From the NCBI RefSeq assembly GCF_021028975.2, contig NC_059429.1:81096001-81160000 (forward strand): DNA of 64,000 nucleotides, given 5' to 3'. The translations under genes were made by a program, and so were the position numbers. This stretch comes from Sphaerodactylus townsendi (Eukaryota). Of this stretch, positions 34,391-63,359 are shown piece by piece (position 1 is the stretch's first letter; each line of letters starts with the position of its first letter). A model generated the notes under the pieces. That model worked only from the letters and a program-made list of their open reading frames with translations. It searched no databases and had not been told where the DNA came from.

Positions 34391-35580
34391 AGTACCTTTA
34401 CCTTTAAATTAATAACAAATATAGATGAACATGGGAAGCAGATAAAAGATAGATTGGTGAATGACTGAGGAGGTGAGAATGAGGTAGGAAAAGAAGAGAG
34501 GATAAAGGGAAATAATATGGGGAAGGGGGTACACTGGAAAGTCCTTGCTCCCTACCATGCAACTGGGCCTGGCTCATAACTGGGTCATATTTTTCCAGGT
34601 AGTTGGTTCCGGAGCAGTTAAAGATAAGTTGGCTGTTGGGGGGCGGGGGGAGTGGGAAGGAGAGAAAGAACAGAGAACAGGCTATGGGGGTTTTCAGAAA
34701 AGAGAAAGGAAATAGTGGAGCAGGAAAAAAATGAGATATCCCCCACAAGTCCTTGCAAGTCCCTGCTTGTGTGTGTGTGGATGAATATGGAAAAGAAAGA
34801 AGAAAGGATGATAGTGAAAAATCCTTGGTTTGAAGTCAAAGGTAGGGCTCCTTTTTGGCGGATGTGATCGGGAACACAGCACAGCTGCCAAGAGATTAAG
34901 CTGTTACATGTTACTGTTGTTCAAGTACCAGCCCTCCAATCACACAAAGCCACCCCTAGACCACATTTCACTGCCTGTTGCATTCTGTTCCATCACCCCT
35001 TCCTTTATAAGTTGCCAAGCACAGTTGAAGGAGCTGACATTTCCAGCCTGGCTAACAGGAAGACAGGATGATTTTTCTTATGGTGTCTTTTTGACATGCT
35101 AACGTTGCTGAGGCACACACTCATGAATCCCAGGATTGGAAGGTGAGCAAATAACCTTTTCAAAAGAAGGCAGCGCTGCTCAGAGATACAGCTGTGGGTG
35201 CTAGACCTTGCAGGATTTTAATGAAGACACTCAGGAGATGGGTGAGGAGGGGAGCAAGTCATTGTGAAAAAGCTGAGGGTGTCATGGATTTCAGCTGTCT
35301 TTACATGCTGAAAAAACCCTGAGACAGGTGCATTTGTGTATATTGTGGGATTCTAAGAAGTAAGAGGGGAAATAGTTCCCTGTGACCATGAAAAATATTT
35401 TGCTTGGTGTGGGATAGAGTTGCTAAACACCTGAAGGAAAAACCTTGCCCCTAGAGGCTTATGTGTAGAAAAAAGCAGCAACCGAATCAACGGGTGCAGC
35501 CATTGCTGCTGGGGTGAGCTAAGGAGGCAAAATAAGTCTGCAAAGCATACCCGGACGGCATGCTGCAGGAGGGTGCAATG

Positions 35581-35624
35581 ATTGGCTCCGGGCCGGTAAA
35601 GGCGGGAGGAGCCTGAGTATAAAA
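35581..35624 (+). promoter_or_regulatory. Pol II promoter of the Ngaro-type element
   Basis: ATTGG (inverted CCAAT) 35581, GGCGGG 35601 and TATAAAA 35618, in canonical order and spacing upstream of ORF1. Confidence 0.7.
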
Positions 35625-35902
35625 GGGGCACCATACCCAGAGCTCATCCTTCTTGGCGGCGAGACTCAGAAAGGCGTGGTGCACGGAGACCGAGTCAAGC
35701 GTAAGGCCAAGAAGGAGCCTGACAGGGTATTTGCAGCTTGGTTTTCCCCCTCTTTTACTTAAGTCAACCCTCACTCTAGCTTTCTGCTTAAGCCCTCTCC
35801 TTCTTGCTCATTCCTTCACCCTAACACTTAACCTTTCCTTTCTTTCTCTGCACCCCCACTCTTCCTTCCAGCTGCCTACCCAGTTGAGGGGCTTTGGTTG
35901 CG

Positions 35903-37414
35903 ATGCCTCCAAAACGCTCCAAGAGCAAGGAGTCCCCTGGGAGGGAGCAATTCCCTTCGGGTAGGGCGAGGGCCCTCCTGAATAGGGTCCGAGCCTAGAC
36001 GGGCCCCGGGGCCGGCGGGGATGACCCGGTGGTTGGGTGTATCGGTGCAGCTGCCCGAGCAGCTGCAGCTGCAACCCTGGGCCTATCCCCGATAGGTCGG
36101 GGACGGGGAGTGGGCGCCGCGGGGCAACTCTCCTCAACCGGGAGGGGGCTCGGCTGCGGCGCGGCAGGGGAGGCCTCCACGGCGGCGGAGCCTCCTCTGG
36201 GCCCGGACGCGCACCCTCTTTCTTCGGGTGCAGTGTCGACGGCGGACCAGGCGCCTAGCTCTAGCCTGGTAAAGAGCCTGGCAGACACGCTGCTTCATCT
36301 TTCTCAGGCCCTTAGTGGGTCTTCTGGGAGCCTTGGGGCCCCTGTCGAGTCTGAGGACCTGGCACCATCAACGTCGGCGGCCGCCGGTGCGAGGGAAGCG
36401 GGCCCTTTGGAGCAGCCGGTTCAAGAATTCCAGCTCTCTCCTCCCGGAAGTGCTTTGACATCTGTCAATGCGTCAGTGGGCCCATCCGAGAGGGAAGGAC
36501 GGAGAAGGAAGCACTCGTCGCGGCATTCCCGTTCGTCTCACTGGTCTCCCAGCTCGTCTTCGTCCAGTGAGTCGATCAAGGACGACGAGATGCAGGCCAG
36601 CGGGGAGTATTGGTATCAAGGGGAGAAGGTACCCGCTTTGCCCTCTTGGTTAGCCAAGCGCAGGCGCCTTCGGGGACCAGAGGCACCATCTACTGGCTCA
36701 GCCTCTGATGACAATGGGAACCCTCCCGGGTCCCACCTGCCTAGGAAGCTGCGGGAGCGGGCCTTGGACGGGTATTACATGGACATATTTAAATGCTTGC
36801 GGCGGGAGGACGAGCAAGGTTTGTCCGGGGGCAAGGCCGACAGGAAAAAGAAAGACCCCCTGGCGGCAGAACGCAACTTTGATAACTGGTTGCAAGGTTT
36901 CAGCGAGTATTTAGCTTTAATAGCGGCCGCTTACCCTTTGTGGGCCTGACACCTGGTAACTCACATGTCGCACGTTTTGCAGGCCCGATCCTTAGCCGGG
37001 GAGGCCGCGGCCATAGCATACGATGAGGCAATTAGAAAGAACGCCTCGCATAAAAGCCGCTTCCGCTGGGACCTTATTCATGACCAAATGTGGATGGTAG
37101 TAGTCCAGCCGGCCATGAGAGGGGCTCACGACCCCGCTGTCAATGACAGACCCCCTAAGGGCCCTTCAGCAGGAAAAGGGACAGGAAAAGGGACAGGAAA
37201 AGGGATGTGCTGGGAGTTTAACAGGGGCTCTTGCCAACGAGCCAGGTGTAAGTATGAACACGTTTGCTCGAACTGCTCTGCAAATCACAGCAGGGTGAAT
37301 TGCCCAAAACCAGCAGGTCGCCCTTCTTTTCGGCAGGCCCGGTTCCCTGGCGCCGGGCACCCACAAAAGGACGCTGGCAGCCAGGGCGGCGGGGCCGCCT
37401 CCCAAAAGCACTGA
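35903..37414 (+). pseudogene. Gag-like ORF1 of the Ngaro-type element, interrupted by two in-frame stops
   Basis: ATG at 35903 (MPPKRSK..) is in frame with track ORFs 36029-36949 and 36965-37414, with stops TAG 35996-35998 and TGA 36947-36949. C-terminal CWEFNRGSCQRARCKYEH (CCCH finger) is followed by CSNCSANHSRVNC (CCHC-like knuckle). Confidence 0.85.
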
Positions 37415-37427
37415 CACCCCAGCCCCT

Positions 37428-39032
37428 TTGAGGACTTTGGCCCCCACCCCAGTGCGGCTCCGGGTGTTGCAGGACTGGCTGCAGCTCTACCCTGACAGAC
37501 CCGCGGCAGAATTTTGGGAAAAGGGTTTCTCCTCTGGTTTTAGAATCCCTTACCAGGGGCACAGGAGGGCCTATCATGCGAATAATTTGAAGTCCGTCCT
37601 AGAGCACCCTGATGTGGTGGCTGACAAGCTCCACAAGGAGGTGGGGGCGGGCAGGATTGCGGGCCCCTTCATCCAGCCACCATTAGCCAATCTGAGGATG
37701 TCTCCCATCGGGGTCGTTCCTAAGAAGGCCCCAGGGGAATTCCGCCTCATACAACATCTCTCCCACCCCCGGGGTGATTCCGTAAATGATTTTATTGACC
37801 CGGAGACATGCTCAGTAAAGTATGCCACCCTGGACGAGGCCGTCAGCCTGATTAGGCAGGCCGGCCCGGGTGCCTTACTGGCAAAATGCGACATTCAGTC
37901 CACCTTCCGGCTCCTGCCCATCTCCCCTCTGGACTTCGAGTTGCCGGGCATCCACTTTCAGGGGCGATGGTATGTAGACAAAGCAATGCCCATGGGTTGC
38001 TACATAGCCTGTGCTGCCTTCGAGGCGTTCAGCTCATTCTTGGAATGGGCTTTCACGCAGAGGGTTCCCTCGGGGTTAGTCACGCACTATCTGGACGATT
38101 TCCTCTTCGTGGGCAGGCAGGGCACTGAGGAGTGCGAGACTGCGCTGAGAGCTTTTCAAGCCTTGGCAGAGGAGTTGGGGGTCCCCCTGGCCCCCAACAA
38201 AACCGAGGGCCCAGTCGCTGTTCTCAATTATCTGGGCATACAGCTGGACACAGTCCGGGGCACCTCCTCCCTTCCTCAAGAAAAACTGCTCGCATTAGCC
38301 GATCTTATTCATTCAGTCCTGCCGTTAAGGAACTGCAGAGTGCGGCTGGTGCAGTCCTTACTGGGTCACCTTAATTTTGCCTGCAGGGTGGTGGCACCCG
38401 GCAGGGCCTTTTGCTCCCGGCTGGCCAGGTCATTGTCCGGGTGCAGGTCCCCCCAGCACCACGTCAGAGTCACCAGAGGCCTGAAAGAAGACTTGAGGGT
38501 TTGGCAAACCTTCCTCTCTGGTTTTAATGGCATCTCTATATGGCAATCATCGCTGGAACCCGGCCTGGAACTACAGGTGCATTCTGATGCCTCCGGGGTT
38601 CACGGCTTTGGTGTCTATTTCCAAGGGCAATGGTCTTGGGGCCTATGGCCCGCAGCCTGGCACACGATGGGAATCACCAGGGACCTCACCTTTCTGGAAT
38701 TATTCCCTATATTGGTGGCGTTTCACATCTGGTACGGTTACTGGCAGGATAAGCGGGTGCTCTTCTGGTGCGATAACCAGGCGGTGGTGCGGGTAGTGAA
38801 CCGGCAATCTTGTAAATCCGCACGGGTGATGCGGTTGGTGCGCAACCTCGTTCTCACTTGCTTAACTCACAATATTTCCTTTAAAGCCGCTTTCGTTCCA
38901 GGTTTGAATAACGAAATCGCTGACGCCTTATCTCGCCAGCAGGTGGACCGCTTCAGGCGCCTGGCCCCCGGGGCAGAGCTGTTCCCAGCAAATGTGCCGG
39001 CGGCCTTGTGGAACCTTGGCAGCGGACCGTAA
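37428..39032 (+). CDS. Reverse transcriptase / RNase H (DIRS/Ngaro-type pol)
   Basis: 534 aa open frame. RT motifs VVPKK..FRLIQHLS, KCDI, MPMG, HYLDDF, YLGI; RNase H motifs SDAS, FLEL, CDN, N.IADALSR. The track start is TTG, so the true start is unclear; the frame overlaps the end of ORF1. Confidence 0.95.
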   Translation: MRTLAPTPVRLRVLQDWLQLYPDRPAAEFWEKGFSSGFRIPYQGHRRAYHANNLKSVLEHPDVVADKLHKEVGAGRIAGPFIQPPLANLRMSPIGVVPKKAPGEFRLIQHLSHPRGDSVNDFIDPETCSVKYATLDEAVSLIRQAGPGALLAKCDIQSTFRLLPISPLDFELPGIHFQGRWYVDKAMPMGCYIACAAFEAFSSFLEWAFTQRVPSGLVTHYLDDFLFVGRQGTEECETALRAFQALAEELGVPLAPNKTEGPVAVLNYLGIQLDTVRGTSSLPQEKLLALADLIHSVLPLRNCRVRLVQSLLGHLNFACRVVAPGRAFCSRLARSLSGCRSPQHHVRVTRGLKEDLRVWQTFLSGFNGISIWQSSLEPGLELQVHSDASGVHGFGVYFQGQWSWGLWPAAWHTMGITRDLTFLELFPILVAFHIWYGYWQDKRVLFWCDNQAVVRVVNRQSCKSARVMRLVRNLVLTCLTHNISFKAAFVPGLNNEIADALSRQQVDRFRRLAPGAELFPANVPAALWNLGSGP

Positions 39033-39922
39033 TCACAGGTGTTTTGAATTCGTTAGCCCCGGCCCCGCGTAGACAATTCGACGAGGCCGTGCACTTCCAG
39101 AGCTATGCAGCAGCCGCGGGGCGCTCAGTCCACAGCGGGGTGGACACAGGACTGTTACTTGAGTACTTGGTGCACCTTCACGGTCAGGGGACACCCCCCC
39201 AGTCCATGGGGGTCCAGCTGGCAGGGATAGCGTTTTATTGCAGGCTTTCAGGTTTCCTGGATGTGACCAAGGCGTTTGTGGTTTGCCGGCTCTTGGCTGG
39301 TTGGCGTCGGGCAGGCCCCAGCCAGAGAGATTTAAGGCGCCCCATTACGAGGGAGGTGCTCCAGGCAGTCACAGGCACACTGCGGCAGGTTTGCGCTTCG
39401 CGCTACGAGCGTCTGCTCTTCGCTGCAGCATTCCACGTGGCACATCACGGGGCTTTCCGGCCGGGGGAGCTGGTTGCCCTCTCCAGGGAGCGGCTATCGG
39501 GCAAGGTCTTACAAATCCAGCACCTAGTACTGTCGGGGGATGGGGTTTATGCATGGCTGACCCATTCCAAGACAGATCAGGAGGGCCACGGCCCTTGGGT
39601 CACGATGCCGGCCCTACCGGGCGACGTGACTTGCCCCCTTGCCTCGTTAACTGCATGGCTCCCCCGTAGGCCTCGGCAAGGGGGGATGCTCCTGGTCCAC
39701 GAGGACGGTTCCCCCCTCACCAGGTTTCAGATGCTTGCCGTGCTTAGGGCATGCTTGGCGCGGTCGGGCTTGCCAGCCACTGAGTTTGGCCTTCACTCCT
39801 TCCGGATAGGGGCTGCCATGTCCGCAGCACAGGAAGGCAGGGCCCACAATGAGATACATACCCTAGGCAGGTGGCGCTCAGATGCTTTCCGGGCTTACAT
39901 ACGCCCTCACCTCTCTTGTTAA
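39008..39922 (+). CDS. Tyrosine recombinase (phage-integrase family)
   Basis: Catalytic set present: GAFRPGEL (R), SKTDQ (K), HSFRIGAA (HxxR), LGRWRSDAFRAY (W, Y). Confidence 0.95.
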   Translation: MEPWQRTVITGVLNSLAPAPRRQFDEAVHFQSYAAAAGRSVHSGVDTGLLLEYLVHLHGQGTPPQSMGVQLAGIAFYCRLSGFLDVTKAFVVCRLLAGWRRAGPSQRDLRRPITREVLQAVTGTLRQVCASRYERLLFAAAFHVAHHGAFRPGELVALSRERLSGKVLQIQHLVLSGDGVYAWLTHSKTDQEGHGPWVTMPALPGDVTCPLASLTAWLPRRPRQGGMLLVHEDGSPLTRFQMLAVLRACLARSGLPATEFGLHSFRIGAAMSAAQEGRAHNEIHTLGRWRSDAFRAYIRPHLSC

Positions 39923-39934
39923 TTCCTTTACAGT

Positions 39935-40540
39935 GACTCCAGGGACGCCCAGACTGTTGTTCGACAGGTGTGGGTCGTGGGGCACAGCATCGTCAACCGT
40001 GCTGGAGACTATGCCTGCTCGTCCGAGTGGGGCCGGCATCTCGGCTTGGAAGCATACCTGAGCATCACCTGGATGGGTCAGGGCAGCATGAGGTGGGCTG
40101 ACCTGGAATACACCATATTTAACTATGTTTTCCACCTAACTGCTCCAGACATTCTGGTCATCCACTTGGGCAAAAATGACCTTCCGGCAATGTCGGGCCT
40201 CGATCTGATGTGGGCTGTTGATGTCACTCTGAAGAGCCTGCAGAGGCATCTGCTGGACACGGTTCTTGTGTGGTCAGGGCTTTTGCAGAGGATTCTGTGG
40301 AGGGGTGCTGAGAAGCCCCACCGGGTGGACAGGGCCCGCCGCAAAGTGGACAAGGCGGCCGCCAAACTGGTGCTCTCTCTAGGGGGAGCGGTGGCAGATC
40401 ACTCGGAGATCTCCCACGACATCCACGATTTGTACAGATCGGACGGTGTCCATCTTACCGATTGGGGGATGGATCTGTGGCTACAGTCCATCCGGCACAC
40501 CCTTCTCCAAGTGGTGCGGAATTGGCAGGCTCAGGCTTGA
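39935..40540 (+). CDS. SGNH/GDSL-like hydrolase ORF
   Basis: Blocks VWVVGHS, LVIHLGKNDL (GxND) and SDGVHL (DxxH). A hydrolase ORF after the YR is a known trait of some animal Ngaro elements. No ATG upstream of the catalytic Ser. Confidence 0.9.
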   Translation, partial: DSRDAQTVVRQVWVVGHSIVNRAGDYACSSEWGRHLGLEAYLSITWMGQGSMRWADLEYTIFNYVFHLTAPDILVIHLGKNDLPAMSGLDLMWAVDVTLKSLQRHLLDTVLVWSGLLQRILWRGAEKPHRVDRARRKVDKAAAKLVLSLGGAVADHSEISHDIHDLYRSDGVHLTDWGMDLWLQSIRHTLLQVVRNWQAQA

Positions 40541-40675
40541 GAAGCTTGGGCGGGAGCTGCAAGAGGGGCAGCTTGTGGCGGGTTGGCAACGGGAGTCGCA
40601 ACATCTGGGGAGAAAACGAGCCATCCGGCAGGTTCTCCCAGGCTTGTGCCCTGCGGAAGGGCCGGGGTGTGTGGT

Positions 40676-40848
40676 GGGCCGGCTGGCAGGCCGGTAGGCT
40701 TGGCCGTTGCCTGACACCCCAGGGAGTGGGGTGGGTCGGGCCGGCTGGCAGGCCGGCAGGCTTAGCCAGTGCCCGACACCCCAGCAAGCTTGGGGAGGAT
40801 GGCGGGCTGGTAGGCGGTCATGGGCTTAGCCGGTGCCCGCCTCCTCAG
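40676..40848 (+). repeat. Three degenerate ~62 bp tandem repeats in the Ngaro 3' non-coding region
   Basis: gggccggctggcaggccgg(t/c)aggctt(g/a)gcc..tgcc(t/c)gacaccccag at 40676 and 40738, with a looser third copy at ~40801. Confidence 0.8.
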
Positions 40849-41001
40849 CAGGAGCAGGAAGGGTTGAAGCTGGAGTGTTACCTCCGGGGCTCCCCTTCCC
40901 GCTGGTGGCCCCAATGGAGATTGGGGATCGATTGATGTTGCGACCCGTTTGCTGCCCTAGCTTCTCTGTATATAGTTATTGTATATATTTGCATTTATAT
41001 T

Positions 41002-41007
41002 AATAAA
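41002..41007 (+). terminator. Polyadenylation signal of the Ngaro-type element
   Basis: AATAAA after an AT-rich tract, followed by GT-rich gtcgtagttgtgtcttt, ~85 bp from the element's right end. Confidence 0.65.
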
Positions 41008-42394
41008 TTGGGCTGCGGCCCAATCCATTTTTCCAAGCCTGTCGTAGTTGTGTCTTTATTTTGGCGGAGAAGGGTCTCACCATCTGCACGCAATGGGCAG
41101 CTGAAGCCTTTCATGACACAGAGGCAAGAGCAACACCATGACCCTCAGACATGCACAACAAAACACCCAGTTAAACATCTAGTAAAGAAGCAGGGCATGT
41201 TTTCTTCTGGTTGTTGACAACCATAGATAAGGGCATAGTAAGAGGGAAATAGGAAACATTTAGTGGAAACGTTTTCTGGATCCAATCTCATCTTTACTTG
41301 CTTATTAAACTTATTTTAGGACTTGAAATACATTTTAAAAATTTGATAGTGCATAACATTATACAATTTTGTTTATTATTGAAATTAAAAATATCCTGTA
41401 GTTTTGTTCAAACAAAATTACAAATGTGAAACGCACTAGAGAAAGTTTCAAACTGATGCATTCTCTGCTACCTGAGCTCAGATATCTTAGTTTACACCTA
41501 AAATGTTCTTCTTAAATAATTTCCCACCAAATAATAGAGGTTTTGTAATTGTTCTTCAGTAAGGCAGGCCAATAAGCTGCTAGTTTGGATGGAGCAGAGT
41601 GTCTATGTCACACCTCTTTAAGAAGTTAAAAGGTTGGTTATGGGTTGGTTGGTTATATCAAGAGAACAGCAGATTCAAGTTAGAAATGCTAAAGCAATTC
41701 CCAGTTTTATCTGGTTGACTTGAACCTTGGTGAGGAGAATCATATTTCTGCCCAAAAAGTAGCAGGGATAGTTTTGCTCCCACCCTTCTTAAAGAACTGG
41801 AGATGCCACACGCTGGGGTGGGGGAAAAGGAAGGGCTGCTGTGCTGTACTCTGTACAACCAACAAGAGAATGAGGTAGGGTTGGCGGTTCGGCCCCTCCC
41901 GAACGGCAAATCAGGCCGAGATCAGTCAGTTCGGAGGGGGTCGGAGGGCCGAGGAGCCGAGCCTGCCCCCTCCTCACTCTAAACTAACCGGCGCTGGGTT
42001 CTTCCCTCTCGGTGCCAGCTTAAGCCCGAGCCAGTTTCTGGGGAAAATAAAAATTTAACTCCTTCTGGCCCAGTCTTCTCCTCTGGCAAGTTTCTTGGGA
42101 CGAAATGAGCTTCCAAGTAAGCTTTGGGACGAAAGCAGCTTCGCAAGTAAAAAAACAAAACAACAACCCTACCGCAGTTTACCGCCCCCCCCACCCCACT
42201 CCCCGCAGTTTACAAGCACCCACCCCCACTCCAGCCTTCATTTCCCACCCAACTCCGCCGCCAAAACCCCAAGACTTCGAATCCCCATGCCGCCTTCTGG
42301 CAAGTGGCGTGGACGAAAGGGGCTTCAAACTACAAAAAATAAAACTCACAGAATGGTCCCCACAAAGCTTCCACCCAAAGAGACTCCCACTTAC

Positions 42395-43605
42395 CCACAG
42401 TGTCACTGGGCTTTCCCCACTTAGCCCGTAGTTTCTCCCGCCGGGCTACTTGAGGAGAGAGTAGCTGCTCCTCCTCCTCCTCATACACGCAGGGCTGCCA
42501 CAGCGCAGCCGCCTGCTGCTGCCGCTGGGCCTTTCCCCCCCACTTAGCCGCAAGCTCCCCGGGCGCTACTTGAGGAGAGTAGCGCCGGGTTCCTCCTTCC
42601 TCCTCATGGCAGGGCAGCCACAATGGAAGTCGCTCTCGCTGCCGCTGGGCCTTTCCCCGTTTACCGGTAGCGAAGCCCCGCCGGCTACTTGAGGAGAGTA
42701 GCTGGGTTCCTCCTCCTCCCAAGACGCAGGCTGCTGACAGCGCAGTCACCTTACCGCTGCCGCTGGGCTTCCTTTCCCCACTTACCGGGTGAAGCTCCCG
42801 TGCTATTTGGAGGAGAGTAGCTGGGTTCCTCCTCCCTCACCTGCAGGGACGGCCAGCCAGCCGCGAAGTCAGCTTCCACCGCTGCCGCTGGGCCTTTCCA
42901 CTTCACCGTGAACTCTGCTACTTCTTGAGGAGAGTAGCGCAATTCCTCCTCCCTCCTTCGACGGCAGGGCGGCTACAGCCGCCAGTGCCGCCTTGCCGCT
43001 GTCGCTGGGCCTTTCTCTACTTAATCGCGAAGCCCCTCGCCGCTACTTGAGGAGAGTAGCCGTGGGTTCCTCCTCCTCATCGCGTAGGGCGTGCTACCAA
43101 AGAAAGTCAGCCCACCGGCTGCCGCTGGGCCTTCCCTCACTTTAACATCAGAAGCCCTCTCTGCGGCTACCTTGAGAAGAGTAGCTGGTCTCCTCCTTCC
43201 GACGCAGGGCGCTACAAAGAGCCAGCCCTACCGCTGCCGCTGGGTTTTCCCTTTACTCATCTTTACCGTAACCCCGCGGCTACTTTGGAGGGAGAGTAGC
43301 GCCGTTCTCCCTCTCCTCTATCGGGTAGGGCGCTACAAAGCAGTCAGCTTCCGCCACCGCGTCGCTGGGCCTTTCCCCACTTGTCAGTAAGCTCCCGCTA
43401 CTTGAGGAGAGTAGCTGGTTCCTCCTCCATCCCTAATGCAGGGCGTGCCACAGTACTGGAAGCCGCGTCAGCTGTCAAGGCCTTTCCCCATCTTTATCGT
43501 AGTGCTCCCGCCGCCACTTGAGGAGAGTAAAGCGGGCAATTCCTCCTCCTCCTCAATGCACGGTAGCGGCCACAGCGCAGTCGCCTTCCACCGCCGTCGC
43601 TTTCG
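42395..43605. repeat. ~120 bp GC-rich tandem array (~10 units) inside the hAT element
   Basis: Recurring gccgctgggcctttcccc..gctacttgaggagagtagc..ttcctcctcc..gcagggc at ~119-120 bp period. Confidence 0.9.
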
Positions 43606-43994
43606 TCGCCCCTCAGCTACAGCGGGCATCTCAGGCTTTTCTGAACGGCTTTGACGACTTCGCGACAGAGCTGGTCAGTGGACGCTTCGACGCTAAGGGC
43701 TGATGCCGCTGGAGAGCAGCGCCAGCGGCATAGGGGATGGAAGGGAGTGGGGAAAAGCTCCATTGTCCACAGGCTTCTCCACTCCAGTGAAGCGCAGGAC
43801 AGCACAGTAAGGCTGGAAGAAAAAAAGTGCTGGGGAAAAAAAGAAACAAAAGCAGAGAATCCACATCCCCAATGTTAGAAATGTGGCAAAACAACACTTT
43901 AACTGAAAAAAATCAACTACTTTTAACTGAACAACTAACTAAAAAACTTTAATAAATTTATGTGGTGAATTCCACCTGCCTGGGAGAGTTTCTT

Positions 43995-44460
43995 TACCAC
44001 AGTGCCCGCGAAAACATGGTTAAAAGCATGGATCCTCAAGGATCCGCGATGGTTTTTTCACTTGGTCACCCAAGCAAAATCACCACCACCAACATGGCAC
44101 AAGTCCTTAGACATTACGTCTGAACAAAGTAGTCACACATCCCATGCTTCATGGGCTCCAACAGTGCCCCAAAACATGGTTAAAAGCTATGGATCCTCAA
44201 GCGATCCACATGGTTTTTTTCTACCTATCACCCAAAATCACCACCACATCATGGCACAAGTCCTTAGGCACATGTTCGCACAAAGCAGTCACACATCCCA
44301 CGCTTCATGGCCCAACAGTGCCCCAAAAACATGATCAAAAAAAGAATGGATCCTCACCGACTTACCGATTTTTTCCTTGGTCACCCCAAAAATCAATACT
44401 GTAAACATCACACAGTAGCACAAAAAATCTGTTTAAAAAAGCAAGGTTCCTCAAGGATCC
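43995..44460. repeat. ~150 bp tandem array (~3 units) inside the hAT element
   Basis: acagtgccc..aaaacatggttaaaagc..ggatcctcaag..catggcacaagtccttag repeated. Confidence 0.8.
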
Positions 44461-45615
44461 TTAACTCGTCATCCAAACTGCACTGAAACCTAGGGGGTAT
44501 GATCATGAAAGTCTCCCAGATGATGATACTCCTGAAATTTTGGTGTCTCTAGCTTTAAAAAATGTATTGTCGAAGGCTTTAAAAAAATGGTTTTCCATGC
44601 TTTTCATCCCCCCTCCTCGACATTAAGGTGATAATGGACCACCTGTTTGTGGGTCCATAACTTGGGCCCCCCCTTGAACCAAACTGCAATCTCAAACATG
44701 GGGTGTAAGTGATCAGAATAGCGTCTGGGAGACACCCTTCTGAAAGTTTGGTGATGATACCTTTAAAAATGCGCCTCTGCAGGCACCCCAGGAATTCCCC
44801 CCATTGAAAGCAATTGAAAAATCTCACTGCAAACCACGGTGAATCTCAGGGCGTAATCTCTCAGGTTGAGGTGGGGCGCATTTTTTAGTAGTATCAGCAT
44901 TTAATTAGAATAATACTGTTTTGATTATGCATCTGCTTATATTAGTGGAATAGGGGCCTATATGTTGATCCTCAAAGATAGCCCCTATATTCCATTGGCT
45001 TCCCCATTGACAACAATGGAATATGTGGGCTATTCTTTGAGAGGGTCCATAACTTCTGGGCCCCTGACCCAAACTGCAATCTCAAAACCTGGGGTGCATA
45101 ATCAGAACAGTATTCCTGAAGATACCCTGAAATTTTCATGGCGCCAATATCTTCAAAAAATGCGCCCCTGCAGGCCAAAACAGGGAAAAACAGCAAAAAA
45201 ATAAAACGAACCCGAGAATCTCGGAAATTCGGGTGTATCCGAGCCTGGCAGGCTCAGATATGGGGGGATCCGACCCCATACATCCGAACTGGACCCGAAT
45301 CCGAACCGGGGCCGAATTTTTTTCCCATTTACCAACCCTAGAATGAGGCACTTTTAAAAGCTCTACTCATTTGTAGCTACTCATCTCCATCCTTCCCTCC
45401 TTGTGGCAGCAATGCAGGATTAGATGGTCACCTCAAGACCATGCAAGATTTTTTGGGTTCCTATCTGCCTGGCTCCCCAGCTTGGATTTTCCAGGCTAGC
45501 CTGATCTCATCAACTCTAAGCTGATAAGCTGGTGTGGTCTTGGTTAGTATTGAGATGGGAGACCACCAAGGAAGTCCAGCATAACTATACAAGGGCAGCC
45601 AATGGCAGACAACTA

Positions 45616-45940
45616 CGCAGCAGTGGCGTAGGAGGTTAAGAGCTTGTGTATCTAATCTGGAGGAACCGAGTTTGATTCCCAGCTCTGCCGCCTGAGTTGT
45701 GGAGGCTTATCTGGGGAATTCAGATTAGCCTGTACACTCCCACACATGCCAGCTGGGTGACCTTGGGCTAGTCACAGCTTCTCGGAGCTTTCTCAGCCCC
45801 ACCTACCTCACAGGGTGTTTGTTGTGAGGGGGGAAGGGCAAGGAGATTGTAAGCCCCTTTGAGTCTCCTGCAGGAGAGAAAGGGGGGATATAAATCCAAA
45901 CTCCTCCTCCTCCTCCTCTTGTTGTTGTTGTTGTTGTTGT
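45616..45940 (+). mobile_element. tRNA-derived SINE (Squam3-like), inserted in a 5S-derived SINE
   Basis: Box A tggcgtaggagg, box B gtttgattcc, core ctgggtgaccttgggctagtcac, L2-type tail ending tataaat followed by (ctc)n(gtt)n. Confidence 0.85.
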
Positions 45941-47939
45941 CTGGGAACCCCGCAAGGCTGTTATGTGTGACTTAATACTCGTTCCACTTTCTGACTGGCT
46001 AGTATAATGGACCTTAATTTTGCCTATTTCACATTTGTTGTGGTAGGACAATGTTGTCTGTCTATCTGTCTATCACAGACTAATTCTGAGCAGCTGGTAT
46101 GGCGAAACTGAAGTTGGCAGGATTTATGAGGGCAGGTGCTTATTGTTAAATTAGATTGGAAAAAACCCTGTGTCATTCACAGATTAGGAGAGACACTAAA
46201 AACAGCCACTGATTTTTGCATTGTGCTGGGAGGGGGTCTAATGTCTTCTTGTGCTTAAACATTTGCACTGGTAATGTTTGCACTGTTCAGTGTGGTCAGA
46301 CACAGTTCCTATTGTAATTAATATGCCCTAGTGTAACCCATATATTTGTCTGCTCTTGCAGCCCCTCCATTTATTTTTGTACAAGGACTCTAGTACTGCC
46401 AAATCTTCCTTTTCCAAGAGTAATCTTGGACCCTCCCTTCCCACGAGGTTTAATAGAAACAACTTACCAAGATATTTACTTTATTTACATTATTTATAGT
46501 CTGCCTTTCTCACAGGGACTCCATGGGGATTATATATAGATATGTAAAATAGTCATAAAGATTTTAGGCATGTGCAACACACGTCTTTCTTTTCACTGAG
46601 TAACCTGGAGTAGCAATGAAACTGCAAGGCTTTGAAAAGGTGATGGTATATTCATTTGGTCAGAAGCGCTAAAACACATCTTAAAGACTTTGGTTTCAGC
46701 ACTGAAGAATAAGTGAAGAAGCTGATTAATAAGTCACGTTTGCAATGAAGATATTTTGAAAAACCCATGATTGCCACTTCCAATAAATAAGGAGCAGATA
46801 CATACATGCAGCTTCCACCTTGGTCCATCATGTTGCCTTAGATTTAAGGAGGACCTTTTTGTAGGCAATTTTATCTGCATCTCCTCAACAGAAATATCAC
46901 TGTTCCTTCTCTTGACAGGCAATATGAATGACCTTTTCAATTTAACATACTGTTAACTAGTTGGGTAGACACCAGAACAAATAAAGCCTATTCTATTATG
47001 TAGGGGAACAACAATTAAATAGTGGGTAAGTTTTATTGGCATTCTGTGTGGTTCGACTCCAGCCTTGGCAGCACCCCAGGTAGTTAAACATTTAAGAGAG
47101 AGACGCAAGGCGGGGGTCGGGGGAGAGAACAGCACTTAAAAGACTGTGGTCACTTATGCCAGTGCTGCTGAAGACAGCACAGACTTCACCCACTACTGGT
47201 GCCATTAAGACTGGACTTCAGACTCATTTCAGGTCTCACATACAGGCTGTAGATGTCAAGACCTGTTAAATACAATGGGACTTACTTCTGAGTACATATG
47301 CATCAAATCAGGTTACACTGTGGAGATGTATGAAGTGAAAGAAGACTGCTGAACATTCATTCTGTGTTTCACATTTGACATATCCATCTGGATCATCAAG
47401 TCAGCTAATGGTGCCATTGTTCATAGCTGGTTTCGGATCTGAGTTCAAGTTCTCCTGGGCTAAGGCCAGCATTCTATTTGCTACGCTTGGCCCTCCAGCT
47501 GGTATCTTTTCATGCTTGGAATAAGCAGTAACTTTCCTGATGAGGGACAAAGCTGTGCTGCACCATTTCAGACAGACATTGCTTGGTTTCTTTTATTCTG
47601 TGGATTTCTTTTTACACAGATAGAACACACCTAGCAAACTCTGGCCTATAAAACCCTGCTTATATAATTGTGCCCACACAATCTTGTCTATAGAAAAGAA
47701 AGGCTTGAAAAAGTATGTGGAAAAAAACCCTGTGAAGACAAAGGCAAGTATGTGGTCTCTATCCCAACTGTACCTGGGACAGAGATTATAAGCACTGCTC
47801 ATGATGTTTAGATTTTAGCCCCACCACAGACACAGACAGAATGCTAGTGGGGTCACAAAGTGTGGAGGGCTCAGCTGGCAATCATTTTTATGTTTGGCTC
47901 CTCCTCTATATCACTATATTCAGGTCACTTCAGGAAGGC

Positions 47940-48830
47940 CCTTGGTTACCCATTGCCAAACTCTGGACCCAGATCAAACTCTGGACCCAGATGCACCCAA
48001 CTGCTAAATGACTCATTTGACTCAGACCTAAGGTCGAATCCCCACTACTGTCTTAGCCAGGTTTCAGAACACAAATTAACCAGGTTTGAGGGATGACCTC
48101 CCCATTGCTTGCTTGGCAGATTCCGCTCCTGGTGCTCGTTCTCCCCGTTAATCCGCGTTCTGGCAAGACCTGGTTGCAAGTGGCATAGACCCCATTAACA
48201 CGGCTCAGAGCTGATCCGAGGGGAGGGATGAGGGTTGAAACCCTGACTCATTTCCCGCCCTGGAGTGTGAAGCAGAATTCGGGCGACCAATCAGCGCTGC
48301 GATGCGTGCGCAGCCTTTCCTTGGTTTCATTTCCGCTTTTGCAATCGGCCAGCAGAAGGGGATGCAAATGTTAAACAGTCAAATGTGTAACTTTGAATCG
48401 TTAATAGTTTACACAGGTAACAATTAACTGTTTGCACAGTTAAACAGTTAAACGTTAAACGTTTACACACTGTTTTTTTTAATCACACCCCTACAATGTA
48501 CATTTCTGCAGTGAGAAAAGGTCCTGCCCCATCAAGGCATGCCAGTCAATCAGGGGAGACTGGCAAAGCGAGCTCGCCTGGTAGTGGGGATTGCTAAGAG
48601 TTCTGCAACCGGGTGTGTCTGCTGTGTGCTCGCTGCAATGGGGAGGGAGAAACTCCGATGAAGAGGACATGGTTTCACAACGAACAGGTTTGGATCTGCG
48701 TGCAAATTTCAAGTGGGGATTCGACCTTGGATGGCTTTGTAGATTTAAAGTGGGACAGGCTCAAAAAGGCATATTAAACAATCTTAACACTGGATCAGTG
48801 AGTTTAGGCTAGCAGGGTGGGAAAGTAGGT
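47940..48830. mobile_element. Foldback non-autonomous DNA element, family unassigned
   Basis: Inverted match aaggtcgaatccccact (48030) / agtggggattcgacctt (48712); CpG-rich core and gttaaac/gtttac repeats. Confidence 0.5.
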
Positions 48831-51074
48831 TACCTAATTAGGGTAGCATATGGACCTAAGAAGATGCAGCTCAGGAGAATACTACTATGAATGTTTTACG
48901 TATGTGCAGAGAAAGGTTAAAACTTTGGTTGCCTAAAAGATACCTCTTGGGTGTTTCTAAGAGTTATAGAACAATATACTCCAGGGACTTAAAAGAGGTC
49001 TGGGGGATCCAGGCATGGAAAGCATAGTTCCAACTTTCCCCAATTGTGCTTAATCTAAGGATAATTTTTAAGCAGTTTAAAAAGAAGCTGTAACTTTCCA
49101 CCAAAAGGAGAAAATCTTATCCCTTCACCTACCTCCTATCTTTTTGCTTCAATTAGGAGCCCTTTTCCCAGCAGTCCAATTTAATACTTTTGCCATACTA
49201 GGCAACCCACTGCATGTCTCTGGACCACTCCTTCCATACCTCATTGTTTATGAAACCCTATAGACATTGAACTCTCTCTTATTCTGACATGCATCCCGTA
49301 TTCTGTGGAGAATGTGACTAATGAGAAAATAAAATAATACATAAAATGGACTTTTAGCTAGAAAGTTTTAACTATGAATCAACCCCAAACTTTCTGCTTC
49401 TCAGCAAAAACAACACCCCCCCAAAAAAACCCTATCATGTGTGAGACTCATATCTTCTGAGAGACTGCATTTAAGTTAATAATGGAGGCATGCCTGGTTC
49501 TTACCACTCTAGGCTATTGTTCAGACAATCATGAATAGCTCTATCCCCCCCCCCCCACAGCTGCATAACACTATATTTATGACCTTACTTGGTGTCATTT
49601 CCAAGTATTAGCCCAAGTAGAGGTCACATCTGGCAATGACAAAGTGTCCCCAGCATGTGGGGAGTAATGGGAGGACTGTGCCCAGCCTGCGGGAGAAAAT
49701 CCTGCAACCATTTTTATTACTGATGCCCTTGATGAATGAATAATGAATAATTTTACTGTTGGCTTTTGCATTATGAAGTATTCATTGAGTTCAAGCTTCC
49801 TGGGGTAATTAACTACAGCATCAACCGCCAGTAATCTGGCCCAGAGGCAATTCATCTTCTGCACTTCATTAGCAGGACCTGTGTTGCTTTGATAAATTAA
49901 TGACAAACATACCAACGCAAACACAAGCCTCTGTCATGCTGTTCTGACCTCAGCAACTCAACCCTAGAGAAGATAGCAGAGCAATCTAGTAAGGAATGCA
50001 ATGTGCATGAACCTGATCTTTCCAATTAGGAGCTGAGAAAATCTTTACCGGTGCAGGCATTATGAAGGATGAGGGAAAGAATTTCAGAGAGGAAGAGAGT
50101 TTAGCCTGGGCGTTGTAGCTTTCTTAAAAATTCGACTTCCTGCTATTTGAAACCATTGTTAGTCAACATGACCATGAATGCAGGCTAAAGACCCACAATG
50201 ACAATGTAGTACGTGTGTGTATGCATATAAGTAGGTTGTTTTACCCATTATAGAGGTTTTGCAATTGGCATGGCTGAAAATTATCCAAATAGCTCTGGGA
50301 ACCATTCATATCAATGGTCATCTCCACATTTTGTTTATTTGTGTGTATGCTTTCTAGTTAGAAATTTGTGCTCTGCCTTTTATTTATTTAGTGTCCACTT
50401 TTCAGGAGTCACTTTGCCACTGAAAGGCCCCCAAATAACATAACACAAATAACAATTAAAAATGTAAACACTGCAATAAAAGCAACCAATTCAATAAAAT
50501 CCCCATGAAAGCACAATAAAAAACTGTCTTGCTGAAAGCAGAACTTCAAATTTAAATCATCTCAGCATTCTTCTTGTATCAACATGCAGGAGAAGCAAAT
50601 TTTTGCTCACTTGCAAATGTATGTGCTCTTTCTTTGCAACTAGGCTGTTTAAACATTGAACATACCTTGCTTGAAATGCCTGTTTTCTCTCATGTTGCAC
50701 ACCCTGCAATACTGAGATGTAGTTTGTGCTATAAGACAATTTTTGAATGGGTTTGCATGTACACATTTGGTGGTATTCAGTATGACTTTGTTGTTTGCGA
50801 CAACAAAGGACAAATATAACAGATGCCAAACATATCCAAGAGAGCAATGTGGTCTCCTTCCTGAGTTAATTACGATATAAGGGCAAAAACTCATCTCCTG
50901 AATCCTAACACATCATCATCATCATCAAATCCATCATGCTAAGTAGTATATCAGGCAACAAATGCTCTCCAGCATTTCTAGTCTTGGGAGAGTGTTTCAG
51001 CCTTTTTCTGTGCAAATCCTAACACATCTGTAAGCAAATATCCAATCATTGTTTTTGAGTTAAACAGGACATCA

Positions 51075-51238
51075 GAAGAAGAAGAGTTTGGATTTATACC
51101 CCACCTTTCTCTCTTTTAAGGAGACTCAGGGTGGTTTACAAGCTCCTTTCCCTTTCTCTTCCCACAACAGACACCTTGTGGGGTAGGTGAGGTTGAGAGA
51201 GTTCTGAAGAACTGTGACTAGCCAAAGGTCACCCAGCA
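51075..51238 (-). mobile_element. Squam3-like SINE 3' part
   Basis: Reverse complement of ~45750-45905. Confidence 0.8.
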
Positions 51239-51602
51239 CAAATATCAGCACAAATATTATATCTTTCATAGACTGTACATCTAAATATGGGATAATTACA
51301 CACAAACTGTATAACATGTGTATACAATGAGCTACAAAACCAACAATGAGAAGTGGAAAAGCTAAACTGCTGAAAAATATAGATACTGCAATAACTACAA
51401 CAGCAGCAGCAGCGAACTGTCTTACTTTTAGAGGCTGGGACAGCTAAACTCGGGTTCAAAGAGGGTTTCCATGTAGAGACAAATTGTGTGTTCTGAAGAT
51501 TCTGTTTATTAAAGGGCTGGATTTTATATACGCTAATAGTAATGCTCTGAGTACAAAATGAACAAAAAGCCATGCATCTGTCTGAAGCAGCTATCTGACC
51601 AA

Positions 51603-51743
51603 GGCCCCTTCCGCACACGCAAAATAATGCGTTTTCAAACCACTTTCACAACTGTTTGCAAGTGGATTTTGCTATTCCGCACAGCTTCAAAGAGCACTGA
51701 AAGCAGTTTAAAAGTGCATTATTCTGCATGTGCGGAATGAGCC
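51603..51743. mobile_element. ~140 bp palindromic Harbinger-like MITE
   Basis: TIR ggccccttccgcaca / tgtgcggaatgagcc, TSD caa. Confidence 0.85.
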
Positions 51744-52262
51744 CAAGATGGCCTGCTTGTTTACGCTGCTCCTTATCTGAGCTCAGCTATGCACTACAAT
51801 TCTAGGCACAGCTGACTAGGAATTGGCCTGTCACAGAATGAAAGAGGGCAAATAATGGGCTAACATGGCATGCAGTGAAGATTCACTATTGCTTCCTCCT
51901 TGCCATACAAAGGTCTTCCATGTGTACATCCACTGCGTTAATATTTGCTCGTTTGGAACCTGAATTATTGCCTGCAGTATAGAAATCATTCGCAAAAGAC
52001 CAGCCCCCATTATCCCAAGGAAGATGTAATTGCTTGCATATGTATGCCATCCAACATCTTGTCCTGTATGTAAACATTCCTGATGCTTCCCCATCTCCAA
52101 ATGGATCATAACCCATTCCTGACCCCAAAGGCACTCAACAAGGACACCAAGATAGAGTTAACACTATACTCACCTCATGTTGTATGCAAGGTAATCAAGT
52201 CACATCTGACTTATGACAACCCCATAGGGTTTTCATGGCAAGAGACTAACAGAGGTGTGGGG

Positions 52263-52430
52263 CAGTGGCATAGCGCCAAGGGGACAGGGTGGGGCGCGAT
52301 GCACTGGGCGCGCACTGGTGCAGAGGCATTTCCAGGGCATTCTGGGGGTATTCCGGGGCAGGGTGTGGGCGTGGCAGGGGTGCAGGACGCAGGCATGCCC
52401 CGGGCACAGTTCCCCCTCGTTCTGCCCCTG
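52263..52430. mobile_element. GC-rich hAT-like MITE
   Basis: cagtggcatag / ttctgcccctg termini and an abrupt GC-rich insertion; TSD imperfect. Confidence 0.6.
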
Positions 52431-53797
52431 GTAAAGGGTTCCAAGTCAAGAGACATTTGGAGGTTGTTTGCTATTGCCTGCCTTTGTGTAATAACCCTGG
52501 TATTCTTCAGAGGTCTCCCACCCAAATACAAGCCAGGGTCAGGGTTGAGAGTGTGTCACTGGCCAGCAAACCTCCATGGTGTGAATGGGGATTTGAACCT
52601 GGGTTTTCCAGGTCCTAGTGACCTAGTCTAACACTTTAACCACTGTGCCACATTGGCTGTCCCCATCAGCCTGCTATTAAAAAGATAGGATTTTTTTCCC
52701 TCTTCAAGGGAGTTGGCAACCCTGCTCTGGTCTTCCCTTAAATCTTTAGGCTAAAATTTATGCTGCTACAAGGCAGTTCCATGTAGGAAAATGAGCAAAA
52801 TATCACATGTGGTTGGAACTGTATATACTGTTTTTCTTTTTACTCTTCAAATACACAAGATCATATTTAATGTCTATGTGATGAAGGAAGTCTTGAATGA
52901 CACTCAAGGGTCCACAGGAGAGGTTCCAGTTTTCCCTACCTGAAATAATCCCAAAAGCCATTATTTGCCCTGCTGGGAAAAACTTATTAGATACAGACCC
53001 TCCACGCAGGCATGCACAGCAGAACACAGCACTGGCAAAGTAGGTCAGTGCTTCCAAAAGGCTGCACTAGTGATCTGAGACTCTATCTACATGGCTACCT
53101 CAGCAGAGCACTTAGCAGCATTCACTTATTTATTTATATACCACCCTTCTCTCTCCTATGGAGACCAAAGGCAGCTTACATCATTTTCCTGACCTCTATA
53201 TTATGATCAGAACAATCTTCTGATGTAGGTTAGGCTGACAGTGTGTGACTTGCCCAAGGGCACCCAGTAAACTTCTGTGGCAGACTGGACATTTGAATCT
53301 GTCTCTCTCAGATCCTAGTTTAACCATTATACCATGCTGGATCTCTCCATGAGTCCCCACTGACTGGACAGGGCCTCATGCCTGCTGTTATTGAAGTTCT
53401 TTCCATCCTTTAATTCATAAAGGGTAGAAATTTGATCTTTAGGCTCTGAACCTTCTCCTCTGTGAGCCCTATCAGCTTGTCAAAAGTGTAATTATTCATA
53501 GAAAATGGATGGATAAGCTACTATAAAACTGTAGTTATTCATTAACAGTTCATGGAGGTTGACATAATTCTATTATCAAAGAGCTTTGGAATATATAATA
53601 TGTATAGTTAAAGAAAAAGTATGTAAATAACATATTGGGGTGTCATTTTGAACTTTTGACCCCCTACAAAAATGTAGATCTGGCCCTAAGACTTGGATTG
53701 GGAAGACTGGGTTTCAGATCTCCACTGAGCTATACAAAGTCATTTGGGTCTTTTACACTCTCAGCTAAACTTATGTGCTAAGCTGTTGTGAGATGAA

Positions 53798-55767
53798 GGC
53801 CGTTTCTGCACGGCACAATTATACCAGGTTACAATCGGTATCTTACAATCTGGGTCTATTTTATCCCGGTTTCACCTTTCACATGGGCCGAATTCCCACC
53901 GGGAAATTCAATCTAGATCATGGGTAGGGAACCTGCGGCTCTCCAGATGTTCAGGAACTACAATTCCCATCAGCCTCTGTCAGCATGGCCAATTGGCCAT
54001 GCTGGTAGGGGCTGATGGGAATTGTAGTTCCTGAACATCTGGAGAGCCGCAGGTTCCCTACCCCTGATCTAGATCAAACCAAGTTTGAAAATGAATGGCA
54101 CCTTTTCATCAAGGTTTCAACCTCCCCACTGCAGCATGTTTCTAATGAAGACATTCTAGGCCTATCTCGGATTCAAGAAATGTGATAATCCCCACTACCA
54201 CGCTTGGTTGTTGTGCCATGTTTTGGAGCGGGACCTTTTTTTTTCTCCTGCAAAAACATGCTCACGTTATGACATCATCACATCTCCCCCTGCCCAAGTT
54301 TCTGGTTGGTTATCATTCTCTCTTGCTCTCGAGAGAACAGCACCATGCACACTGATTGGTTGTAAGACATTTGCATCATGCTCCACAGCAGGACATTTGA
54401 ACCAGGATTAGACCCCCAGTCCTCCCTTCCAAACTGGATTAAAGACATGTTTTTTGAAAAAGTAGTACTTTCAAGCAGGTTCGGCAAAGACACGGGATAA
54501 AGGGGAGAATGAGCGCTAGAACTGGTATGAATCTTTGGCCCTTTCCCCACTTACCCTTTTCCGAGGGTTGCTGCACGCAATTCCCAGCGCTAGCAGCACT
54601 CCTGGCTGGCGCAAGCCCTGGAACGTCCCCACGACCCTTCACGCTTCTGTGCTTGGGGCCATCAAAAGGGCCATCGTGGCTTCCTTTGAAAGAGAGAGCC
54701 GCCAGGAATGCCTTATGCGCTGAGGGAGTGCGACTGAGAAGCAGCGTCGGCCGGGTGGGCTGTGCTGCTGCCGCCCTCTCTGTGTAAAGGAGTGCTTGAG
54801 GGACCTCGCCAGCTTACTCTCCCTCGGTGTAGCACGGGGCTTAAGGTAAGTGGGGAAAGGGCCTTTGTTCATCGATGAGGCAGTGGGGAGTTCTTCCTGA
54901 ATCCTTAATATTTCGCGTGAGTATCATGCGATTAATTGACTGTGGGGAATTGGCCATGGCTGCCCATTTCTGTGAAGGAATCGAGGGATGACCAGGAAAC
55001 ACTCCAGTTTGTTTTGCACAAACCAGGGTCTTTTGTATTTACACCACAAGCATATCTGTGCATATGCAAACATCCCTGGCATCCTGCATTCTGATTGGCT
55101 GTTGTTTGGGGCAGCAGCAGGGGAAAATGAAGCCCCCCCTTTTCCAGTTCTGGATAGTGCCGGCCTCAACAAAAAAACAATAGGGCACAGCATCACATCA
55201 TATTCCCACTCATATTCTCATATTTTTTGTGGAAAAAATAAGAGACTCCTCCCTGCCCCAGTGATATGCCCACTAACATTCAGCCCAAAGTGCACATCTC
55301 CCTAGCTATGCGTTCTGAGCAACCAGTACATGTACAGAAAAGAAAACGGGAACATTTTGGCACTCTACTCCTGATTAATCCAGGAGTGGCACTTGGTTGA
55401 TACCATGAGCAGAAAACGTGCTTGGGGGAACATTTCAGGAAGGGCGGGCTGCAACAGTTCAGCAGAGTTGAAAACTGACATGACGTCAGGTGTGGAGATT
55501 GGGAGTGGGGGTGGGGGGTGGATTGGGAAGATCAGGCAGCTGGGCAGGAAAAATAAACCAGTTCTGCTCCCATGGTGTTTGCACAATAGCGGGTTCACCA
55601 TGGGATTTTTGATAAGAATTGTCAAGCTGGTGATTTTTGAAAATCCTGGGATGAGGGAAATATAGTAGGACAAACCTGCTTTACGACCGAGAACCATGCA
55701 AACCTCTTTGCAAACAGGGATATTTCCCTTGCTCAACCTGAGATATTTGGACCGTGCAGAAATGACT
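53798..55767. mobile_element. Harbinger-like non-autonomous element (~2 kb)
   Basis: TIR ggccgtttctgcacgg / ccgtgcagaaatgact, TSD gaa. Confidence 0.8.
53919..54066. mobile_element. 148 bp hAT (Charlie/URR1-like) palindromic MITE nested in the Harbinger-like element
   Basis: Almost perfect palindrome ca(t/g)gggtagggaacctgcggctctccagatgttcaggaactacaattcccatcagcc; 8-bp TSD atctagat. Confidence 0.92.
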
Positions 55768-56853
55768 GAAACAGAGAAGATGAGAGCCAAGTATGGCACC
55801 CTGAGCATTTTAGAGGGAGGACAGGATAAGCGTCTAGAGAGGTAATAATTAAACATGTATTCTAATTTGTAGCCATTGATGCTTGTAGGCACAGTTCTAT
55901 TACTTTTTCTCATCTATATAAGGTGTTTAAAATTTACTGTGTGTTCTGTGATCATTGTGTTTGCTTCAACAGTTGTTCTGCAAACTGGATTACTATTCTT
56001 TCTGTTTTGCAGAGGGCAGGTTGATAAGAATGACTGAAGAAATACAGAAGGATCGAGAAGGAAAAATATAAGTGCTGCACATGGAGAACAGGGTTATCCT
56101 CCTTATTAAGCATTTGCTGTATGTGCTGAGAATAACTTGGCCAGATCCCGCTGTGCTGCTATCTTTCCCCCTCAAGTTTACAGGGGGAGCATCAAAGGTT
56201 GTCTCTTGATTTATTTATATATCAGCAAAGCTTTACCTTTACCTTACAACCTCTCTCTCTCCTTACAATTCAGATCGTTTATCTGTCCACTCTATCAAGG
56301 GGATTGTGTTGAAGGATCCTTTCACAGAGGCATGGGACTAGAAGGGCAGCTTTTATTCCTCTGCTGTTATCTTGAAACACGAACCATGGAATCCTAAGTC
56401 CCTCTAATACTGAACACCATTTGACTGATATGCAACCTGGAAACTAGTGGAATGGGATTGTATACCCACAGCCTACCAGGTGTTTAAAAGAGATTAGTTG
56501 GCCTGGGTTGCTTTGATGTTTCTGTTACTTGAACCAGAATAATGAGGCTGGTGTAGAGGAGGTACCCAGGGCCATAATAGCAAGGGTACCTATTTGGAGT
56601 CTGGATATTCCAGGCTCCTTCCCTGAATTTTCAACTATAAAATAATCTCTAGCCTTTTTGAATGGTGGATGCAGTAAGGAAAACAACTATAATAGTATTC
56701 TACTCAACCATATAGTAGGAATTAAGCCTTCTCTGACTTCCCAGTGTTCTTGTGCCTGGTAAATACATTGGAATAACTAAGATGCACCAGGACTTTGTAG
56801 TGATGTTTGCTTGTTCATGTGTAATACAATAGAAATATCTTTTAAAGCACATT

Positions 56854-62400: not shown

Positions 62401-62479
62401 GTTTAGGATGGGGGCTATGGGGCGCGTCGGTTAGTAAAGGGCAAGTGGATGGCGAAGCCGAAAGCAACAATTTTGAGTA

Positions 62480-63250: not shown

Positions 63251-63359
63251 CGCAGCGTCAAGCGAGCCACGGGTTCCTACTCCCCGTTTTAGTAGGGATG
63301 CAGGAACACCACGAAATACCCAGCCTGTTCTCCTGGCTATTAAAGTAAGTAACTCCTTT

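Follow-up and report, generated by a model that had tools for sequence, protein, structure and literature searches.

What does it mean when a retrotransposon has the genes of a Ngaro-type element and none of its split direct repeats? The question is posed by the element at positions 35470-41091 of a 64,000-nt stretch of Sphaerodactylus townsendi DNA (NC_059429.1; hereafter the window, whose coordinates are used throughout), which has open reading frames (ORFs) for gag, reverse transcriptase/RNase H (RT/RH), a tyrosine recombinase (YR) and an SGNH hydrolase-like protein, and from which the repeats A1-B1-A2-B2 are absent. The original prediction offered two answers: that B1/B2 recombination or assembly collapse had removed A2, or that the family rebuilds its ends in some other way. 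Our analysis suggests that this is probably a decayed member, of the form A1-[gag, RT/RH, YR, SGNH]-B, of a standard Ngaro-type family, and that it likely lost A2, any spacer and one B by recombination between B1 and B2 after insertion. The missing repeats are likely an ordinary loss in one copy, with no new way of copying, because sister copies have a B|A junction and doubled repeats are seen in distant relatives that share its genes.

Results

The element has a GC content of 0.59 and a CpG observed/expected ratio (o/e) of 0.61, against 0.19 (1-35469), 0.11 (41092-41870) and 0.27 (43700-60000) outside it; two further blocks of the window are also CpG-high (o/e 0.73 and 0.89). The claim that CpG had been retained stands when the element is set against most of the flanking DNA (0.19-0.27). 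Four frames on the + strand, gag, RT/RNase H, YR and SGNH-like, follow one another in that order, and the last three are open with intact catalytic motifs, as had been claimed; the two nonsense codons reported in gag are present as well. The features are as follows.

35469-35680, + strand: A repeat (A1), promoter end, with reverse CCAAT at 35581, GC box at 35601 and TATA box at 35618; right border approximate (35635-35680)
35701-35871, + strand: predicted 5' untranslated region (UTR) intron, with donor-like GTAAG, pyrimidine tract and AG; from a motif scan, prediction only
35903-37414, + strand: gag-like ORF, interrupted by nonsense codons at 35996 and 36947; zinc finger of CCCH/CCHC type at the C-terminus
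37299-39032, + strand: RT/RNase H ORF, 577 aa, with no methyltransferase domain behind it
38924-39922, + strand: YR ORF, 332 aa, catalytic residues kept
39923-40540, + strand: SGNH hydrolase-like ORF, 205 aa, with GHS, G, N and DxxH blocks
40576-40581, + strand: TGGCGG motif, predicted start mark of repeat B by likeness to the B1 start of relatives
40577-41091, + strand: single B-type terminal segment; start predicted, end shown
41092-41093, + strand: AA at the right junction, a predicted recombination core; the left junction has a matching A run

AA is present at both junctions in the sequence. TATAAAA at 35618 and AATAAA at 41002 are exact matches, and the predicted RNA, at about 35645-41025, omits both termini, so that the original prediction was right on these points. 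The B segment also holds 62-bp tandem repeats (40677-40850) and a GU-rich tract (41040-41062). As had been stated for the promoter end, neither the 5' nor the 3' end has a second copy on either strand: blastn over the whole window (word size 7, E up to 10) found none, and local alignments were no better than shuffles (p 0.07-0.83). Neither cryptic short copies of A2 or B1, nor an internal complement, nor a terminal inverted match rose above shuffles. No further pieces of the element lie elsewhere in the window, Rfam gave 0 matches at E up to 1, and no relatives were found among viral contigs.

An RT-alignment search for relatives gave 79 metagenome loci (79 of 522 confirmed stretches) and 11 genome-bin loci, most of them too short for the ends to be seen. 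Loci L082 and L083 have the gag/RT/YR/SGNH order of the window element (RT 45-46%) and contain A twice and the start of B twice (95.6-100%), with a unique 1.2-kb spacer between A2 and B2. Likewise, L077, L088 and L009 have A leading on to two different continuations and B reached by two routes, and plain tandem A-ORFs-B units would not produce the forks found in these five loci. Seven of 11 exits from a second A go on with a C-rich tract (12-14 C in 20, against a background of at most 0.2% in those loci), and no such tract was found at the second-A exit in L086, L014, L052 and L076. Where the tract is present it follows A2 directly, and 0.2-1.3 kb of unique spacer then precedes B2 where the contig reaches that far (spacer or tract at L082 6186-7443, L083 5570-6782, L077 5332-5921, L088 6958-7170, L009 162-762, L021 5707 and L057 5529). 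The 900 bases past the 3' end of the window element hold no C-rich tract. From these comparisons, intact members of the family would likely have the standard end, A1-ORFs-B1-A2-(spacer)-B2.

The start of B can be placed by a short motif. TGGC[GA]G straddles the B1/B2 branch point in L082, L083, L077 and L009, and not in L088. Of 44 related loci, 13 have it no more than 160 nt from the last stop (3.2 expected), namely 13 of the 22 scored loci with SGNH last and 0 of the 22 with YR last; because the pattern was picked after L082, L083 and the window had been viewed, and because some loci have a common source, the count is not fully independent. The window element has TGGCGG 35 nt past its SGNH stop, at 40576, which predicts B at about 40577-41091, and the presence of the relatives' B1-start motif at the matching place supports descent from a standard copy. 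TGGCGG is also found at 35654, just past the predicted start site, and at 41062, 30 nt before the 3' end; the five copies in the element amount to 0.9 per kb against 0.1 outside, which is partly a GC effect. Literature searches on TGGCGG as a B1-start motif and on an A2-B2 spacer returned nothing relevant, one of them being crowded with unrelated terms.

Two further observations concern the relatives themselves. L077 and L009 have gag, RT and repeat forks and no recombinase match, and are likely internally deleted, non-autonomous forms. L080-L090 are Ngaro-type animal retroelements in contigs filed within bacterial or archaeal genome bins, likely as host contamination of the bins.

Public read-run contigs allowed the locus and its sister copies to be compared with the window in 4 of 8 listed sequencing runs. 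Unique left-flank contigs enter the element and stop at 35498 (runs X1 and X3) and 35496 (X4), and unique right-flank contigs begin at 41069 and 41068; run X5 had no junction contig among the matches listed. Both flank junctions are therefore real, and they are found in two organisms that differ at 9 of 1230 flank bases. Run X1 had 5365 matching records (770 at 99% or more, 1346 at 95-99%, 1985 at 90-95% and 1264 below 90%), and the element belongs to a high-copy family whose members are mostly 90-95% alike. In the same run summed depth is about 60000 at 35590 and 82 at 35682, which puts the A segment that copies share at about 35470-35680. In the interior, the locus-specific contig 36310-36664, with 0 differences, has a depth of 67.7 in run X1, against 69-74 in the flanks.

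The joint that links sister copies to the standard end comes from run X3, where a contig passes from 41088 to 35470 with two letters between, joining the B end to the A start. An end-to-start joint had been predicted as a circle junction; the joint was found, but with a depth of 241.8 against 28.5-32.8 in the flanks, about 8 times single-locus depth, it is likely genomic and not episomal. It is likely the inner B1|A2 of standard copies, or the junction of tandem copies.

The insertion had been called young, which overstates the case: the copy is fairly recent but decayed. Its junctions are shared by a second organism, long sister contigs differ from it by 8-14%, its YR departs from 7 of 63 near-invariant columns (0-10 in 16 homologues, median 1.5, two of them higher than 7), and the YR frame has no Met at the start position of the homologues. 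A CpG-decay context accompanies 9 of 30 picked listed differences. The sharing by two organisms, the private letters, the two gag stops and the longest tip among squamates indicate that there has been time enough for decay. By comparison, the RT is unremarkable, departing from 6 of 156 near-invariant columns (0-18 in 30 homologues, median 4).

The coding frames are those of a Ngaro-type element. Pfam matched the RT/RH ORF to RVT_1 (E 7.8e-10), the SGNH-like ORF to Lipase_GDSL_2 (E 9e-4, below Pfam's cutoff) and, weakly, the gag frame to a CCCH finger. The YR ORF had no Pfam match of its own and was identified by homology, through 46% identity to squamate proteins carrying PF00589. The YLDD of the RT, the four acidic residues of RNase H and the R-K-H-R-W-Y of the YR are invariant or nearly so in alignments. 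The RT/RH ORF stops about 30 aa past the last RNase H motif, and Pfam gave no match at E up to 0.1 to Dam (PF05869), the domain by which, according to the relevant portion of the source, the methyltransferase is detected (PMC3783388). The second gag stop (36947) falls in a conserved block; of nine proteins checked, seven aligned, five of which have a residue there, one a gap and one is printed only at the first stop. The SGNH frame is likely spliced into the transcript, because it has no ATG ahead of its first block and an acceptor-like AG ends at 39933; loose ends of sister contigs keep the CAG-TG step at the SGNH start. The 5' UTR intron at 35701-35871 and the acceptor-like site at 39920-39933, both predicted, suggest spliced expression.

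The best RT homologue, at 63%, is from Anolis sagrei, and others come from Eublepharis, Podarcis and other squamates, with amphibians at about 49% (Xenopus 49%). A quick RT tree (39 rows, rooted at the midpoint without a DIRS1 outgroup, its careful search not completed) put the element in a squamate clade (support 99*), where it is the longest tip (0.65). The tree would place the element only among squamate and amphibian homologues, and 'squamate' is to be taken as a label of protein likeness only. A marine group in which the SGNH ORF stands ahead of gag, not after YR (L056-L059, L047/L049/L051/L052, L074-L076 and L050), is a separate clade in the quick tree (100* on four rows).

Several pairings that involve the 3' segment were considered. 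A long-range stem (about 40580-40606 with 40933-40958) encloses the 62-bp tandem repeats, its duplex reaching -35.5 kcal/mol (matched by 0 of 500 shuffles; the arms were picked post hoc), and the local fold of the segment has a z of -4.46, partly owed to the tandem repeats. As a general feature the stem was rejected: p was 0.025 in the window and at most 0.05 in only 4 of 26 related tails, one of them mis-assigned. A self-priming signal in which the B1-start motif would pair with the C-rich tract past A2 was rejected, since all 5 of the 5 loci fell short of significance (p 0.07-0.83) and no cognate preference was seen. A single weak match, picked post hoc, paired the element's 5' end with 40933-40955 (p 0.028, or 0.88 when the whole 3' UTR was the target); its 3' end had no complementary pairing. 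Pairing of the A start with B as a mask of the poly(A) signal (p 0.028 post hoc) reached -26.5 kcal/mol, against -35.5 for the stem inside B, and is unproven.

Elsewhere in the window, an element at 41876-45340 with short inverted ends is flanked by an 8-bp target duplication (41868-41875 and 45341-45348) and holds a 119-bp tandem array at about 42437-43600 plus 156-bp repeats; it resembles a non-autonomous hAT-type DNA transposon. The stretch 60600-64000 is rich in GC and CpG (o/e 0.89), is strongly skewed between the strands and carries short degenerate repeats as well as 70-bp repeats (63369-63720); its long frames had no Pfam match.

Discussion

In the standard model, as drawn from published papers, transcription of intact members would start in A1 and run into B2, the inner B1-A2 copy would serve reverse transcription in rebuilding both ends as a circle, and the recombinase would insert the circle at a short A core; for DIRS-1, the portion of the source at hand has it that the circular intermediate itself was not caught (PMC7192593). 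After insertion, recombination between the two B copies of about 500 bp would remove A2, any spacer and one B. The window copy likely cannot rebuild its own ends, because its predicted RNA is without both termini and without the inner template; in cis the copy would be a dead end, with a broken gag besides. Of the two answers originally offered, loss of A2 by recombination or collapse is the better supported, by the sister B|A junction, the relatives of the same layout and published cases of repeat loss. Another way of rebuilding the ends has no positive evidence in the family, although the B|A junction also fits tandems and no A2-to-B2 link was seen among the joints listed for the family's reads.

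Several observations weigh against loss by B1/B2 recombination from a standard copy. The relatives with split repeats are distant marine contigs (RT 33-46%), apparently from short-read assemblies, which start and end inside the repeat, and three marine families with SGNH first (L052, L058 and L076) have some B-A-ORF contigs. A B1-A2-B2 end in most sister copies had been named as the refuting condition, and the outcome went half way towards it: among the joints listed (15 of 45 and 12 of 45), B|A was seen in 1 of 4 runs and a joint from the A end to B in none. The junction survey is blind to an A-to-B joint with a spacer of more than 40 nt, and an A2-B2 spacer of that length would explain the absence. 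The depth of A relative to the interior gives no sign that A is doubled, depth being unusable here as copy number, and no sister copy of the family is readable end to end. Additionally, AATAAA and the GU tract lie inside the predicted B, so that intact members must read through them in B1, and the pairing tests do not settle how. Finally, recombination after insertion cannot be told from loss before it.

The last point applies directly to the idea that a copy of a standard family was born short, the recombinase having resolved the two identical B|A junctions of the circular cDNA into an A-ORFs-B circle and an A-B circle, of which the first was inserted. Both ends are precise at the AA core, recombination at short junction cores is the accepted insertion model for DIRS-order elements in the consulted part of the literature (PMC7192593), and flank-A-ORFs-B-flank contigs exist in the relatives L074 and L075; these contigs may, however, be assembly paths, our literature searches found no published case, and nothing separates this origin from later B1/B2 recombination. 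We hold it to be unlikely. Distinctly unlikely is a collapsed assembly, in which the locus would have B1-A2-(spacer)-B2 and the assembler would have passed from the ORFs through one B into the flank. The B end is indeed a graph branch point (the unique contig begins at 41069), no contig among those listed spans from the ORFs to the right flank, and metagenome contigs of families with B-A have ORF-B-flank paths too (L058 and L059), as do marine SGNH-first families. However, the window has no N and resolves a 5.6-kb repeat with private letters as well as the nearby 119-bp array, the interior contig has a flank-like depth, and private changes should let B1 and B2 be told apart.

A family that is natively A-ORFs-B, its ends rebuilt from head-to-tail tandems or circles when B is read through into the A that follows, would account for the B|A junction, which is what tandems give, for the lack of an A-to-B joint among the joints listed and for the B-A-ORF paths of the marine SGNH-first families. 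We regard it as quite improbable. Split repeats are found in relatives of the same layout and in the Xenopus homologues, the SGNH-first families are a clade apart, L057 of that group has A2 followed by the C-rich tract that opens the spacer elsewhere, and the window copy has no tandem neighbour. The apparent tandem in L076 was rejected as evidence, its copies being identical over 3638 bp as if one graph edge had been used twice. A related proposal, which seems to us hardly more credible, is that a squamate hydrolase-bearing YR lineage dropped the inner A2/B2 entirely and restores its ends by reading across head-to-tail B|A junctions, in tandem arrays or circles, single A-ORFs-B insertions being its normal product.

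Compared with known elements, the copy is filed as a reduced derivative of the published Ngaro-like kind and not as an intact Ngaro element, because its coding part is that of Ngaro (gag, RT/RNase H and YR ORFs, YR downstream of RT, no methyltransferase, an SGNH ORF after YR) and the split repeats are lacking. The hydrolase is no novelty: an SGNH ORF after YR is known in amphibian Ngaro-like members, as the relevant passages of PMC9210276 have it. The same passages describe the hydrolase-bearing Xenopus families DIRS-53_XT as well as DIRS-54_XT, with an A of 236 bp and a B of 152 bp, and report that Xenopus Ngaro-like copies often show complete or partial repeat loss; the DIRS-54_XT consensus is without repeats, which its copies 5 and 10 have. 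The window element resembles these families in the order gag, RT/RH, YR, SGNH, in having no methyltransferase and in split-repeat loss; Xenopus RT homologues are 49% identical to its own, these proteins not being tied to DIRS-53_XT or DIRS-54_XT. It differs in that this copy has neither A2 nor a second B, its RT falls in the squamate clade and its predicted B of about 515 bp, with 62-bp tandem repeats, is longer than the 152 bp of Xenopus.

Ngaro types 1-4 of Cafeteria burkhardae share gag, RT/RH and YR and have recombination-type repeat products, solo AB products being reported in the portion of PMC8547959 at hand; unlike the window copy they are intact A1-[ORFs]-B1A2B2, and that portion mentions no hydrolase and no A-ORFs-B product. 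DIRS1-like elements likewise combine RT/RH with YR and have a short junction core at both ends; their inverted terminal repeats, internal complementary region and methyltransferase, as described in the parts consulted of PMC7192593, PMC3783388 and PMC4157794, were not found in the window element, which is neither DIRS1-like nor PAT-like. In VIPER/TATE of kinetoplastids the split repeats are missing from the Repbase consensus and present in individual copies, and TATE copies occur in tandem; the gene order is gag-YR-RT, the hosts are others, and the relevant portion of the source reports no hydrolase (PMC6681497). Many lizards and a snake already have annotated RT proteins related to this one, and literature searches without subscription journals or Repbase found no paper devoted to squamate Ngaro.

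If a lineage without the inner copy did exist, it would represent a third scheme of end regeneration, besides those based on split direct repeats and on inverted repeats plus an internal complement. On the explanation that we favour, B1/B2 recombination in a standard copy, the locus matters little, as one more repeat-less copy of a hydrolase-bearing Ngaro-type family. As a by-product, the relatives provide markers of Ngaro ends that could help to define the repeats and to test the model of Ngaro replication: the motif TGGCGG where B1 begins, C-rich sequence directly behind A2, and 0.2-1.3 kb of spacer ahead of B2.

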